Below, in pieces: positions 10,277 through 18,650 of a stretch of 64,000 nt of DNA. Origin of the DNA: Escherichia coli (GTDB taxonomy: Bacteria > Pseudomonadota > Gammaproteobacteria > Enterobacterales > Enterobacteriaceae); the NCBI RefSeq assembly GCF_003334385.1, contig NZ_QOWN01000012.1; one strand, 5' to 3'. The notes below the pieces were generated by a model, which worked only from the letters and a program-made list of their open reading frames with translations, had not been told where the DNA came from and ran no database searches. Position numbers and translations under genes: made by a program. Positions within the stretch are counted from its first letter, which is position 1. The number at the start of each line of letters is the position of its first letter.

Positions 10277-11371
10277 ATGGCACAACAGACTCCTTTGTAC
10301 GAACAACACACGCTTTGCGGCGCTCGCATGGTGGATTTCCACGGCTGGATGATGCCGCTGCATTACGGTTCGCAAATCGACGAACATCATGCGGTACGTA
10401 CCGATGCCGGAATGTTTGATGTGTCACATATGACCATCGTCGATCTTCGCGGCAGCCGCACCCGGGAGTTTCTGCGTTATCTGCTGGCGAACGATGTGGC
10501 GAAGCTCACCAAAAGCGGCAAAGCCCTTTACTCGGGGATGTTGAATGCCTCTGGCGGTGTGATAGATGACCTCATCGTCTACTACTTTACTGAAGATTTC
10601 TTCCGCCTCGTTGTTAACTCCGCCACCCGCGAAAAAGACCTCTCCTGGATTACCCAACACGCTGAACCTTTCGGCATCGAAATTACCGTTCGTGATGACC
10701 TTTCCATGATTGCCGTGCAAGGGCCGAATGCGCAGGCAAAAGCTGCCACACTGTTTAATGACGCCCAGCGTCAGGCGGTGGAAGGGATGAAACCGTTCTT
10801 TGGCGTGCAGGCGGGCGATCTGTTTATTGCCACCACTGGTTATACCGGTGAAGCGGGCTATGAAATTGCGCTGCCCAATGAAAAAGCGGCCGATTTCTGG
10901 CGTGCGCTGGTGGAAGCGGGTGTTAAGCCATGTGGCTTGGGCGCGCGTGACACGCTGCGTCTGGAAGCGGGCATGAATCTTTATGGTCAGGAGATGGACG
11001 AAACCATCTCTCCTTTAGCCGCCAACATGGGCTGGACCATCGCCTGGGAACCGGCAGATCGTGACTTTATCGGTCGTGAAGCCCTGGAAGTGCAGCGTGA
11101 GCATGGTACAGAAAAACTGGTTGGTCTGGTGATGACCGAAAAAGGCGTGCTGCGTAATGAACTGCCGGTACGCTTTACCGATGCGCAGGGCAACCAGCAT
11201 GAAGGCATTATCACCAGCGGTACTTTCTCCCCGACGCTGGGTTACAGCATTGCGCTGGCGCGCGTGCCGGAAGGTATTGGCGAAACGGCGATTGTGCAAA
11301 TTCGCAACCGTGAAATGCCGGTTAAAGTGACAAAACCTGTTTTTGTGCGTAACGGCAAAGCCGTCGCGTGA
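10277..11371 (+). CDS. gcvT: Glycine cleavage system T protein (aminomethyltransferase), 364 aa
   Basis: [52 protein letters not shown]... Confidence 0.96.
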
Positions 11372-11394
11372 TTTACTTTTTTGGAGATTGATTG

Positions 11395-11784
11395 ATGAGC
11401 AACGTACCAGCAGAACTGAAATACAGCAAAGAACACGAATGGCTGCGTAAAGAAGCCGACGGCACTTACACCGTTGGTATTACCGAACATGCTCAGGAGC
11501 TGTTAGGCGATATGGTGTTTGTTGACCTGCCGGAAGTGGGCGCAACGGTTAGCGCGGGCGATGACTGCGCGGTTGCCGAATCGGTAAAAGCGGCGTCAGA
11601 CATTTATGCGCCAGTAAGCGGTGAAATCGTGGCGGTAAACGACGCACTGAGCGATTCCCCGGAACTGGTGAACAGCGAACCGTATGCAGGCGGCTGGATC
11701 TTTAAAATCAAAGCCAGCGATGAAAGCGAACTGGAATCACTGCTGGATGCGACCGCATACGAAGCATTGTTAGAAGACGAGTAA
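11395..11784 (+). CDS. gcvH: Glycine cleavage system H protein (lipoyl carrier), 129 aa
   Basis: [34 protein letters not shown]...; lipoyl-lysine context ESVKAASD; track start is a TTG one codon upstream. Confidence 0.95.
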
Positions 11785-11795
11785 CGGCTTTATTC

Positions 11796-11875
11796 CTCTT
11801 CTGCGGGAGAGGATCAGGGTGAGGAAAATTTATGCCTCACCCTCACTCTCTTCGTAAGGAGAGAGGTTCACAATT
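11796..11875. repeat. GC-rich palindromic intergenic element (agggtgagg / cctcaccct arms)
   Basis: Inverted repeat agggtgagg-N10-cctcaccct flanked by gcgggagagg / cctctctcc-like arms, between gcvH and gcvP. Confidence 0.5.
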
Positions 11876-11902
11876 CACTGCACGTTTCAGGAACCATCGC
11901 TC

Positions 11903-14776
11903 ATGACACAGACGTTAAGCCAGCTTGAAAACAGCGGCGCTTTTATTGAACGCCATATCGGACCGGACGCCGCGCAACAGCAAGAAATGCTGAATGCCGT
12001 TGGTGCACAATCGTTAAACGCGCTGACCGGCCAGATTGTGCCGAAAGATATTCAACTTGCGACACCACCGCAGGTTGGCGCACCGGCGACCGAATACGCC
12101 GCACTGGCAGAACTCAAGGCTATTGCCAGTCGCAATAAACGCTTCACGTCTTACATCGGCATGGGTTACACCGCCGTGCAGCTACCGCCGGTTATCCTGC
12201 GTAACATGCTGGAAAATCCGGGCTGGTATACCGCGTACACTCCGTATCAACCTGAAGTCTCCCAGGGCCGCCTTGAAGCACTGCTCAACTTCCAGCAGGT
12301 AACGCTGGATTTGACTGGACTGGATATGGCCTCTGCTTCTCTTCTGGACGAGGCCACCGCTGCCGCCGAAGCAATGGCGATGGCGAAACGCGTCAGCAAA
12401 CTGAAAAATGCCAACCGCTTCTTCGTGGCTTCCGATGTGCATCCGCAAACGCTGGATGTGGTCCGTACTCGTGCCGAAACCTTTGGTTTTGAAGTGATTG
12501 TCGATGACGCGCAAAAAGTGCTCGACCATCAGGACGTCTTCGGCGTGCTGTTACAGCAGGTAGGCACTACCGGTGAAATTCACGACTACACTGCGCTTAT
12601 TAGCGAACTGAAATCACGCAAAATTGTGGTCAGCGTTGCCGCCGATATTATGGCGCTGGTGCTGTTAACTGCGCCGGGTAAACAGGGCGCGGATATTGTT
12701 TTTGGTTCGGCGCAACGCTTCGGCGTGCCGATGGGCTACGGTGGCCCACACGCGGCATTCTTTGCGGCGAAAGATGAATACAAACGCTCAATGCCGGGCC
12801 GTATTATCGGTGTATCGAAAGATGCAGCTGGCAATACCGCGCTGCGCATGGCGATGCAGACTCGCGAGCAACATATCCGCCGTGAGAAAGCGAACTCCAA
12901 CATTTGTACTTCCCAGGTACTGCTGGCAAACATCGCCAGCCTGTATGCCGTTTATCACGGCCCGGTTGGCCTGAAACGTATCGCTAACCGCATTCACCGT
13001 CTGACCGATATCCTGGCGGCGGGCCTGCAACAAAAAGGTCTGAAACTGCGCCATGCGCACTATTTCGACACCTTGTGTGTGGAAGTGGCCGACAAAGCGG
13101 GCGTACTGACGCGTGCCGAAGCGGCTGAAATCAACCTGCGTAGCGATATTCTGAACGCGGTTGGGATCACCCTTGATGAAACAACCACGCGTGAAAACGT
13201 AATGCAGCTTTTCAACGTGCTGCTGGGCGATAACCACGGCCTGGACATCGACACGCTGGACAAAGACGTGGCTCACGACAGCCGCTCTATCCAGCCTGCG
13301 ATGCTGCGCGACGACGAAATCCTCACCCATCCGGTGTTTAATCGCTACCACAGCGAAACCGAAATGATGCGCTATATGCACTCGCTGGAGCGTAAAGATC
13401 TGGCGCTGAATCAGGCGATGATCCCGCTGGGTTCCTGCACCATGAAACTGAACGCCGCCGCCGAGATGATCCCAATCACCTGGCCGGAATTTGCCGAACT
13501 GCACCCGTTCTGCCCGCCGGAGCAGGCCGAAGGTTATCAGCAGATGATTGCGCAGCTGGCTGACTGGCTGGTGAAACTGACCGGTTACGACGCCGTTTGT
13601 ATGCAGCCGAACTCTGGCGCACAGGGCGAATACGCGGGCCTGCTGGCGATTCGTCATTATCATGAAAGCCGCAACGAAGGGCATCGCGATATCTGCCTGA
13701 TCCCGGCTTCTGCGCACGGAACTAACCCCGCTTCTGCACATATGGCAGGAATGCAGGTGGTGGTTGTGGCGTGTGATAAAAACGGCAACATCGATCTGAC
13801 TGATCTGCGCGCGAAAGCGGAACAGGCGGGCGATAACCTCTCCTGTATCATGGTGACTTATCCTTCTACCCACGGCGTGTATGAAGAAACGATCCGTGAA
13901 GTGTGTGAAGTCGTGCATCAGTTCGGCGGTCAGGTTTACCTTGATGGCGCGAACATGAACGCCCAGGTTGGCATCACCTCGCCGGGCTTTATTGGTGCGG
14001 ACGTTTCACACCTTAACCTACATAAAACTTTCTGCATTCCGCACGGCGGTGGTGGTCCGGGTATGGGACCGATCGGCGTGAAAGCGCATTTGGCACCGTT
14101 TGTACCGGGTCATAGCGTGGTGCAAATCGAAGGCATGTTAACCCGTCAGGGCGCGGTTTCTGCGGCACCGTTCGGTAGCGCCTCTATCCTGCCAATCAGC
14201 TGGATGTACATCCGCATGATGGGCGCAGAAGGGCTGAAAAAAGCAAGCCAGGTGGCAATCCTCAACGCCAACTATATTGCCAGCCGCCTGCAGGATGCCT
14301 TCCCGGTGCTGTATACCGGTCGCGACGGTCGCGTGGCGCACGAATGTATTCTCGATATTCGCCCGCTGAAAGAAGAAACCGGCATCAGCGAGCTGGATAT
14401 TGCCAAGCGCCTGATCGACTACGGTTTCCACGCGCCGACGATGTCGTTCCCGGTGGCGGGTACGCTGATGGTTGAACCGACTGAATCTGAAAGCAAAGTG
14501 GAACTGGATCGCTTTATCGACGCGATGCTGGCTATCCGCGCAGAAATTGACCAGGTGAAAGCCGGTGTCTGGCCGCTGGAAGATAACCCGCTGGTGAACG
14601 CGCCGCACATTCAGAGCGAACTGGTCGCCGAGTGGGCGCATCCGTACAGCCGTGAAGTTGCGGTATTCCCGGCAGGTGTGGCAGACAAATACTGGCCGAC
14701 AGTGAAACGTCTGGATGATGTTTACGGCGACCGTAACCTGTTCTGCTCCTGCGTACCGATTAGCGAATACCAGTAA
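11903..14776 (+). CDS. gcvP: Glycine dehydrogenase (decarboxylating), P protein, 957 aa
   Basis: [34 protein letters not shown]...; PLP-dependent; length matches K-12. Confidence 0.96.
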
Positions 14777-14798
14777 TTCACTGATTCGACTATTTTCT

Positions 14799-14821
14799 AA
14801 AGGCGCTTCGGCGCCTTTTTA
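14799..14821 (+). terminator. Rho-independent terminator of gcvTHP
   Basis: aaaggcgcttcggcgccttttt: perfect hairpin with GC stem and T-run. Confidence 0.8.
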
Positions 14822-14855
14822 GTCAGATGACAAAGTACAAAAGTGCTCAGACAGT

Positions 14856-14957
14856 CCCCTCGCCCCTTTGGGGAGAGGGTTAGGGTGAGGGGAACAGGCC
14901 GGCACTGGCGCGAATATTTACCCTCACCCCGGCCCTCTCCCTGAAAGGGCGAGGGGG
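14856..14957. repeat. Long GC-rich inverted repeat (two ~37-bp arms separated by a ~28-bp spacer)
   Basis: Arm 1 cccctcgcccctttggggagagggttagggtgagggg; arm 2 ccctcaccccggccctctccctgaaagggcgaggggg is close to its reverse complement. Same motif family as the element after gcvH. Confidence 0.6.
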
Positions 14958-15042
14958 AAAAGCGTGCCAACATTGAAGATTGAGCCAGTTTGTTAGCAAT
15001 CTCAAAGATACGTCAACGAATTAATTTTTCTCGGAAAAACAA

Positions 15043-15786
15043 ATGGCTATAGCACTTGTGACTGGTGGCAGTCGCGGCATCGGGCGGGCAACTGCATTAC
15101 TGTTGGCGCAAGAAGGGTATACGGTGGCGGTTAATTATCAGCAAAACCTCCACGCGGCGCAGGAAGTGATGAACTTAATAACGCAAGCCGGTGGCAAAGC
15201 ATTCGTGCTCCAGGCGGATATCAGCGACGAAAACCAGGTCGTTGCGATGTTTACAGCAATCGATCAGCACGATGAACCGCTAGCAGCGCTGGTCAATAAC
15301 GCCGGGATCTTGTTTACCCAGTGCACCGTTGAAAACCTTACCGCAGAGCGAATCAACCGAGTACTTTCCACCAACGTGACGGGATATTTTCTCTGCTGCC
15401 GCGAGGCGGTAAAACGCATGGCGCTTAAAAATGGTGGCAGTGGCGGCGCTATCGTCAATGTCTCTTCGGTGGCCTCACGGTTGGGTTCGCCAGGGGAATA
15501 TGTTGATTACGCGGCATCGAAAGGGGCGATTGATACGTTAACCACCGGACTATCGCTGGAAGTCGCCGCGCAGGGGATCCGCGTTAACTGCGTGCGGCCA
15601 GGGTTTATTTATACCGAAATGCACGCCAGCGGCGGCGAGCCTGGACGCGTCGATCGCGTTAAGTCGAACATCCCCATGCAGCGTGGTGGACAGGCAGAAG
15701 AGGTCGCGCAGGCCATTGTCTGGCTACTAAGTGATAAAGCCTCTTACGTCACGGGAAGTTTTATCGATTTGGCGGGCGGGAAATAA
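15043..15786 (+). CDS. ygfF: Short-chain dehydrogenase/reductase family oxidoreductase, 247 aa
   Basis: MAIALVTGGSRGIGRATALLLAQEGY... (TGxxxGIG NAD(P)-binding motif); catalytic YxxxK (YAASK). Confidence 0.9.
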   Translation: MAIALVTGGSRGIGRATALLLAQEGYTVAVNYQQNLHAAQEVMNLITQAGGKAFVLQADISDENQVVAMFTAIDQHDEPLAALVNNAGILFTQCTVENLTAERINRVLSTNVTGYFLCCREAVKRMALKNGGSGGAIVNVSSVASRLGSPGEYVDYAASKGAIDTLTTGLSLEVAAQGIRVNCVRPGFIYTEMHASGGEPGRVDRVKSNIPMQRGGQAEEVAQAIVWLLSDKASYVTGSFIDLAGGK

Positions 15787-15842
15787 AACAGGGAAGTTGT
15801 CTGACCGGATGCAACAAGTATTGCATCCGGTACTTCATCGAC

Positions 15843-17303
<1,461 letters not shown>

Positions 17304-18463: not shown

Positions 18464-18650
18464 CCTTTGTAGGCCTGATAAGACGCGCCAGCGTCGCATC
18501 AGGCATCGGAGCACAACTGCCGGATTCGGCGTGAACGCCTTATCCGATCTACGGGCCTCGTCCCTGTTGTGATAAAGGCATCAAATCCCAGACATGATAA
18601 GACGCGCCAGCGTCGCATCAGGCGATAAATGCCTGATGCGATAAAGAGAT
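18464..18650. repeat. REP/BIME cluster (at least two REP units)
   Basis: Two copies of gataagacgcgccagcgtcgcatcaggc (18476-18503 and 18596-18623) plus an inverted REP-like unit cggattcggcgtgaacgccttatccg between them; classic REP palindromes. Confidence 0.85.

Follow-up and report, generated by a model that had tools for sequence, protein, structure and literature searches.

What is the GC-rich inverted repeat that follows gcvP in Escherichia coli, and does it serve the genes on either side of it? The repeat lies between the gcvP ORF (end 14776) and the ygfF ORF (start 15043) in a stretch of DNA of 64,000 nucleotides, which we call the window and whose positions are used throughout unless MG1655 is named. 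The window is MG1655 reversed, with 7001/7001 bp identical to NC_000913.3 over the stretch compared, and an MG1655 position equals 3060944 minus the window position. The MG1655 RefSeq record carries no annotated repeat feature at the gcvP-ygfF locus.

Identity of the repeat downstream of gcvP

A GC-rich inverted repeat of about 100 bp had been predicted just past the gcvP terminator, and it was confirmed at positions 14856-14956. A repeat finder returned arms at 14856-14894 and 14918-14956, each 39 nt long, 82% complementary without gaps, and separated by a gap of 23 nt. The two predicted arms are therefore present, but their description as near-perfect was slightly generous, given this degree of complementarity and the fact that both loops differ between the arms (TTA versus CCG and CTTTG versus TTTCA). 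Upstream of the repeat, positions 14799-14824 hold the likely gcvP terminator, with an 8-bp GC-rich stem, a UUCG loop, and U5 (-12.7 kcal/mol, z = -4.0).

The potential to form a long hairpin or cruciform, which had also been proposed, is supported by the predicted folds of both RNA and DNA. As RNA, the region 14850-14962 folded with -76.6 kcal/mol on the + strand (z = -7.6) and with -73.7 kcal/mol on the - strand (z = -7.5), and on each strand 0/200 shuffled sequences were as stable. As DNA, the 99-nt core gave -34.9 and -33.2 kcal/mol (z = -6.2 and -5.7). The ViennaRNA folds model Watson-Crick and wobble pairs only. The repeat was rejected as an intrinsic terminator: no U-run follows the hairpin, the next bases being GGAAAAGCG (+) and GACTGTCTG (-), and a scan of 14700-15100 was negative. 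This consensus terminator scan made no call at all within 14700-15100 and missed the evident gcvP terminator (14799-14824) too. The consensus scan of the same interval found no promoter-like site.

Comparison with repeat-family consensus sequences placed both arms in the Box C family. The consensus of the Box C unit, CCCTCNCCC-N3-6-GGGNGAGGG-N3-GGGNGAGGG (36 nt, 26 bases specified), is matched exactly at 14857-14891 (+) and at 14955-14921 (-), and nowhere else in the window. Additionally, an nhmmer profile of 18 other MG1655 units, with the gcvP-ygfF locus left out, matched the A arm with E = 5e-12 and the B arm with E = 1e-9. The repeat is a tail-to-tail pair of Box C units, one of type A and one of type B, each with one mismatch, and consists of the following features.

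14857..14892, + strand: Box C/TMECO unit of type A (one mismatch), TMECO #11, HPGQ 33, identified by consensus, nhmmer, and Holder Table 1; its blocks are C 14857-14865, loop 14866-14870, G 14871-14879, TTA 14880-14882, and G 14883-14891.
14893..14919, no strand: spacer AACAGGCCGGCACTGGCGCGAATATTT, 27 nt between the units.
14920..14955, - strand: Box C/TMECO unit of type B (one mismatch), TMECO #10, HPGQ 32, identified by consensus, nhmmer, and Holder Table 1; its second loop is CCG.

The pair begins 32 nt past the terminator-like stem and its U5, and it is already known, down to the exact coordinate. The A unit maps to MG1655 3046087-3046052 and the B unit to 3045989-3046024. At these positions, Table 1 of Holder 2015 (PMC4666352) gives #11, CCCTCGCCCCTTTGGGGAGAGGGTTAGGGTGAGGGG, as type A with one mismatch and #10, CCCTCGCCCTTTCAGGGAGAGGGCCGGGGTGAGGGT, as type B with one mismatch. 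TMECO 10 and 11 form one of five inverted A+B pairs in MG1655 (Holder 2015, PMC4666352). Similarly, Table 1 of Kaplan 2016 (PMC5100583) lists HPGQ 33 (HPG1) and HPGQ 32 (HPG2) as putative G-quadruplexes between ygfF and gcvP. According to Holder 2015 (PMC4666352), TMECO is the same element as BoxC, described next to envM/fabI (Bergler 1992), and as PIT (Hoyne and Maher 2000, 2002). The family that the original prediction had left unnamed is Box C, one of the four candidates it had listed (REP, ERIC, Box C, and RSA); with this positive assignment, RSA need not be invoked.

Other families were tried and rejected. The REP consensus had no match with up to 6 mismatches within 14823-15001, and the same search recovered a REP element at 18519-18552, with 3 mismatches to the consensus. 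The cores of the ERIC1R and ERIC2 primers, with up to 4 mismatches allowed, had no match in the entire window, which speaks against ERIC/IRU. Against Rfam, for which 9500-16500 was searched, the best hits scored 24-34 bits, with thresholds of 71-105, and were to plant and animal miRNA-precursor models. These hits fall below the gathering threshold, so the repeat matches no known RNA family; they are generic long-hairpin matches. A search of the element for known transcription-factor motifs found none.

The repeat is widely dispersed. A 102-bp query matched 5409/5426 complete E. coli genomes, with a median of 17 and a maximum of 30 places per genome; the copy count in K-12 records was 21. These numbers support the view that the element is a member of a dispersed family rather than gene specific, and because of the matches in 5409/5426 genomes, it is neither single copy nor absent elsewhere. 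Ten other MG1655 Box C sites that we fetched were all intergenic. That the repeat is a chance palindrome, or merely part of the gcvP terminator, is suggested by its nearness to the terminator and by nothing else, and can practically be discarded. Indeed, the fold z-scores near -7.6, the exact agreement of both arms with a consensus of 26 specified bases, and the homologous copies at other loci in thousands of genomes argue against it, and genome matches, consensus fit, and profile hits refute it. A suitable annotation for the gcvP-ygfF repeat is Box C (TMECO/PIT/HPGQ) inverted pair, rather than a new regulatory RNA or a gcvP-specific structure.

The putative composite and its variation among strains

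In MG1655, the pairs at gcvP-ygfF, fepB-entC, and alx-sstT have a homologous spacer of 27-29 nt, GAACAGGCCrGCAyyGGyGCGAAnAtTwA. The likeness of this spacer to those at fepB-entC, alx-sstT, and yijF-gldA of strain KE47 amounts to homology, beyond equal length. As judged from sequence homology, the Box C pair would form the palindromic core of a non-coding composite of ~179 bp, spanning 14823-15001, to which two outer arms contribute.

14823..14856, + strand: left outer arm TCAGATGACAAAGTACAAAAGTGCTCAGACAGTC, by homology to other copies.
14956..15001, + strand: right outer arm GGAAAAGCGTGCCAACATTGAAGATTGAGCCAGTTTGTTAGCAATC, by homology to the KE47 copy.

The right end, which was placed at 15001 by analogy with the KE47/K-12 junction (+/- ~5 nt), is located 41 nt upstream of the ygfF start codon. 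The left arm is homologous to the left flanks at fepB-entC, alx-sstT, fimH-gntP, and KE47 yijF-gldA, and the right arm shows weaker similarity to the fepB-entC and alx-sstT copies. The spacer and both outer arms are common to four loci, namely, gcvP-ygfF, fepB-entC, alx-sstT, and KE47 yijF-gldA. The gcvP-ygfF and KE47 yijF-gldA copies share 85% identity over 188 nt, an alignment that takes in ~34 nt to the left and ~46 nt to the right of the pair. A terminator-like hairpin directly precedes 3/4 of the long copies, and the two outer arms do not clearly mirror each other as inverted repeats.

The surroundings of the units follow their type. A type A unit has ..aCrGTC before it and GAACAGGCC.. 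or GAAAAGGCG.. after it; a type B unit has GCaCcGTTTTCT before it. The single A units at fimH-gntP and adk-hemH still carry some of the left arm and some of the spacer and thus look like truncated composites. At lldD-trmL, the two units are oriented the other way, head-to-head, with 59 nt between them, so this pair is not a copy of the composite.

A recurrence of the repeat core after gcvH had been predicted as well. The 9-mer AGGGTGAGG is indeed found there as an inverted pair, at 11816-11824 (+) and 11835-11843 (-). Overall, the window contains 3 matches to this 9-mer, compared to 0.25 expected, and 0/100 shuffles reached 3. The recurrence corresponds to one further feature.

11794..11866, no strand: separate copy between gcvH and gcvP (intercistronic), probably a decayed Box C pair.

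The assignment of this site to the family is plausible but weaker than that of the gcvP-ygfF arms: nhmmer gave E = 0.0044 at 11801-11824 (+) and E = 2.2 at 11866-11835 (-). The pair is tail-to-tail with a ~10-nt spacer, and its DNA fold consists of three short hairpins (-18 kcal/mol, z = -4.5). The site is conserved in O157:H7 and ExPEC XM, with changes only in the central spacer and one hairpin loop. A decayed Box C pair inside gcvTHP is a plausible, moderately supported, and the simplest reading of it. Elsewhere in the window, a hairpin at 40419-40444 (-), CCCTCTTCCC-GCA-GGGAAGAGGG followed by TTA, gave a weak Box C-like match (E = 0.43). It is located in a 50-nt gap between the - strand ORFs 39625-40404 and 40455-41849 and could be a Box C remnant or just a terminator.

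We compared the loci among strains. At the gcvP-ygfF locus, gcvP, the element, and ygfF were found over the full query length in 3026/5426 genomes, and ~2400 of the 5426 (~44%) had neither the element nor ygfF. In the ygfF-less genomes inspected (O157:H7 and ExPEC XM), the match ends at 14822, the end of the terminator, so the left breakpoint coincides with the left edge of the composite. There, gcvP is followed by 165 unrelated bp and then by bglA, and this 165-bp gcvP-bglA spacer contains a REP-like palindrome. The block missing from the ygfF-less genomes corresponds to 14823-15842, with ygfF at 15043-15786. A palindrome, CCGGATGCAACAAGTATTGCATCCGG, is present at 15797-15830 between the convergent ygfF and bglA.

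At fepB-entC, the whole composite is a clean 186-bp indel with TAA on both sides, and this block is absent in ~2670 genomes, O157:H7 included. At yijF-gldA, the 179-bp composite occurs in 641 genomes only. Among the genomes listed, K-12, BL21, O157:H7, and CFT073 carry at yijF-gldA a 123-bp BIME (two REPs), and the composite and BIME alleles have identical junctions (..GAGTTTCAGA / / TCAAACTCCCGG..). Here, one repeat family takes the place of another, unrelated one. The motifs TCAGA / TCAAA bracket the gcvP and KE47 copies and are retained in the BIME allele too. Comparison of the composite copies revealed no consistent terminal inverted repeats and no consistent target duplication, and no transposase was found in the one gene between inverted units that we inspected (in Mitsuaria, see below). 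The 3-bp TAA repeat at the one clean indel, fepB-entC, could be due to chance, and the block could be gained or lost by homologous recombination of its flanks between strains, not by transposition.

Individual copies also decay, in two cases by slippage deletion within the composite. In the O104:H4 allele of the gcvP-ygfF A arm, 6 bp (AGGGTT) are deleted and one G tract is gone; the same element has a G>A change in the C block and a 1-nt deletion in other strains. At alx-sstT, 75 bp between two CCCTCTCCC direct repeats have been deleted, and what remains is a plain hairpin. The alternative alx-sstT allele of MS198-1 is a different, larger insert. The fimH-gntP comparison yielded no clean empty site, O157:H7 having 13 unrelated-looking nt in place of 82 nt. 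In 5149/5426 genomes, a match covered at least 80% of the zntA-tusA region, and the Box C copy was still present in the one divergent genome inspected. This copy thus appears to be kept in nearly all E. coli strains. TMECO loci were reported to be unusually variable, with palindromic sites tending to collapse to hairpins (Holder 2015, PMC4666352), and our strain comparisons agree with this report on both points.

Conservation and possible activities of Box C

The motif was also found outside the E. coli chromosome. The matches listed by our scan of genome contigs come from four genomes and are examples, not a taxonomic census. Among the matches listed, the betaproteobacterium Mitsuaria chitosanitabida has 145 units in 912 kb, mostly as head-to-head (-,+) pairs 30-270 nt apart. 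A Methylomirabilota MAG has, among the matches listed, 13 units, including three (+,-) tail-to-tail pairs with 29-31-nt spacers, like the E. coli composite, and a Contendobacter MAG and one unclassified MAG contribute more units. We looked for a transposase between two inverted Mitsuaria units 828 nt apart, and the only plausible ORF resembles, by eye, that of a LysE/RhtB-type membrane transporter. Across these taxa, the blocks are constant, and the loops and flanks vary. Even the "N" positions are restricted as in E. coli: the C block takes T/G there, the second block A, and the third block T or, at times, A.

A stricter pattern, with the G blocks fixed as GGGAGAGGG and GGGTGAGGG, matched at least 120 IMG/VR viral contigs, and among the matches listed these contigs have 32-73% G+C and unrelated flanks. 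Holder 2015 (PMC4666352) reported no association of TMECO with phages or plasmids. The motif also occurs in plasmid records of Klebsiella, Sinorhizobium, Azospirillum, Rhizobium, Aeromonas, Enterobacter, and Citrobacter. For E. coli itself, the "plasmid" matches that we inspected turned out to be chromosome-like (flgF-flgG on p94_0962-1, a fepB-entC eccDNA, and a 4.9-Mb record labelled plasmid), and these records provide no evidence of spread by conjugative plasmids in E. coli. That the blocks are preserved from one phylum to another, down to their variable positions, points to selection, or to a factor that recognizes them; neutral junk alone does not account for this conservation.

Which structure could be selected or recognized? 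By CD and NMR, single-stranded Box C sequences form a very stable intrastrand triplex (Tm 70-82 degrees C), and a sequence identical to our A arm, the "type A mm" oligonucleotide, was among those giving a triplex by CD and NMR (Holder 2015, PMC4666352). The A arm is also the parent sequence of Holder's G-to-C control oligonucleotide. By CD, type B switches between G4 and hairpin in a cation-dependent manner. When the complementary strand was present, the duplex was preferred and was the only form seen. In vivo DMS probing did not show the triplex, and no stable triplex was observed in double-stranded DNA (Holder 2015, PMC4666352). As recounted in Holder 2015 (PMC4666352), PIT elements blocked DNA polymerase in vitro; by the same account, they did not act as promoters or terminators, left RNA polymerase unaffected, and showed no other activity in vivo. 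The neighbors of Box C share no gene function, and Box C shows no strand bias relative to genes (Holder 2015, PMC4666352; Kaplan 2016, PMC5100583).

In our own predictions, the C block of both units pairs with the second block in the DNA fold and with the third block (GGGUGAGGG) via G.U in the RNA fold, giving two alternative hairpins. The latter is an RNA-type pairing. It is in line with the idea that the repeat acts as an RNA element, its hairpin serving on readthrough or antisense transcripts as a backup terminator, an insulator, or a REP-like 3' stabilizer against exonucleases. The high stability of the hairpin on both strands (the -76.6 and -73.7 kcal/mol given above), its position directly after a terminator, which is shared by the 3/4 long copies starting after a terminator-like hairpin, and the degenerate copy inside the gcvTHP operon, conserved in the three strains compared, would fit such a role. 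However, the element is downstream of an intrinsic terminator, and therefore little transcript should reach the Box C hairpin. Furthermore, a U-run is missing on either strand, the scan gave no terminator-like site, the published assays, as far as Holder's account of them goes, detected neither terminator nor promoter activity nor an effect on RNA polymerase, there is no strand bias relative to genes, and ~44% of E. coli genomes do without the element. Altogether, we consider a function as RNA unlikely.

Equally improbable, in our estimation, is a function as DNA, in which the pair would be a structural switch or a protein-binding site regulating neighboring promoters (that of ygfF), replication, or nucleoid organization. 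Within the 64-kb window, canonical G3 quadruplex motifs occur in the two arms and nowhere else, single strands adopt triplex, G4, and hairpin forms by CD and NMR, and 41 nt separate the composite from the ygfF start codon. The conservation of the blocks and of their "N" positions from E. coli to Burkholderiales, Methylomirabilota, and viral contigs is also what recognition by a factor would produce. Yet only the duplex forms with the complementary strand, DMS footprinting in vivo gave no triplex, the motif search returned no known transcription-factor motif, 14700-15100 has no promoter-like site, and the neighboring genes share no function. In addition, an E. coli strain may have as few as 1 or as many as ~30 copies, a spread that fits poorly with a core regulatory function. 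We know of no function linked to the triplex or G-quadruplex structure of Box C.

The favored reading and related systems

Taken jointly, these data favor, with a probability that we put at roughly 0.7, the reading that the Box C pair identified above forms the core of a ~179-bp selfish or neutral block, which plays no part in gcvP or ygfF function and is locally unstable. On this reading, the Box C composite would be an extragenic repeat, selfish or neutral, that strains acquire, lose, or exchange in one discrete piece. Thanks to its C/G/G block design, single strands can fold into a hairpin, cruciform, triplex, or G-quadruplex. Several points count against this reading: the failure to find a transposase, consistent terminal inverted repeats, or a consistent target duplication, the unclean fimH-gntP allele, the conservation of the blocks across phyla, and the apparent retention of the zntA-tusA copy. 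The main consequence for the cell would probably be local instability, in the form of slippage deletions between the composite's own 9-mer repeats and, as a second part, of indel breakpoints at the composite edges; the link to instability is correlative. The composite presumably has no job specific to gcvP or ygfF: for gcvP, this follows from its position after the terminator, the lack of any promoter- or terminator-like site, and its absence, together with ygfF, in 44% of the genomes.

A tentative and clearly less probable proposal is that the composite is a MITE-like element of ~180 bp that inserts by terminator hairpins, rivals BIMEs for the same intergenic junctions, and decays through internal slippage to single units and plain hairpins, its fold being recognized by a widespread RAYT-style enzyme or a host factor. 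If this were true, the three-block conservation from Enterobacteria to Burkholderiales, Methylomirabilota, and viral contigs would be explained by such an enzyme or host factor recognizing the folded single strand.

Box C was described more than 30 years ago and, to our knowledge, is among the few repeat families of E. coli for which neither a function nor a means of spreading is known. The side observations made here offer several handles on this question, namely, the 179-bp composite, the gain and loss of blocks, the exchange with BIMEs, the alleles decayed by slippage, and the blocks in distant phyla and viruses. All of these are preliminary findings, drawn from few loci and, for the viral and cross-phylum copies, from the matches listed.

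How does the composite compare with known systems? Box C, PIT, TMECO, and the HPGQ groups HPG1/HPG2 are one intergenic, multicopy family (Bergler 1992; Bachellier 1999; Hoyne 2000; Holder 2015; Kaplan 2016), to which the gcvP-ygfF pair belongs. The published descriptions of Box C compared here concern a 36-nt unit (Holder), a 41-bp motif (Kaplan), or an element of ~50-56 bp (Petrillo 2008), whereas the composite described here measures ~179 bp. The descriptions of Holder, Kaplan, and Petrillo contain neither the homologous spacer and outer arms nor the BIME exchange.

Like H-DNA and telomere-like G-quadruplexes, Box C has the sequence for unusual structures. Indeed, GGGAGAGGGTTAGGGTGAGGG has four G3 tracts with 3-nt loops and, when the C block is added, suits a purine-motif intrastrand triplex; single strands have shown both structures in vitro. 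Unlike in those systems, only the duplex has been detected for Box C in a double-stranded context and in vivo.

REP elements and BIMEs resemble Box C in being short, GC-rich extragenic palindromes that are dispersed, often follow terminators, and are polymorphic among strains, and a BIME occupies the exact junctions of the Box C composite at yijF-gldA in other strains. However, the composite differs from REP/BIME in having no sequence similarity to them, no flanking GTAG, and no known RAYT-type partner, and the three-block C/G/G design of Box C has no counterpart in REP.

Finally, MITE-like repeats such as ERIC/IRU, the Neisseria Correia elements, and the pneumococcal RUP differ from the Box C composite in that the latter has no known cognate insertion sequence, no evident outer terminal inverted repeats, a possible target duplication (TAA) at one locus only, and no ERIC core. 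Nevertheless, they are, like the composite, non-coding, intergenic, and ~130-190 bp long with a long imperfect palindrome, and the composite shows the discrete presence or absence at orthologous sites expected of a MITE, as a block of 186 bp at fepB-entC and of 179 bp at yijF-gldA.
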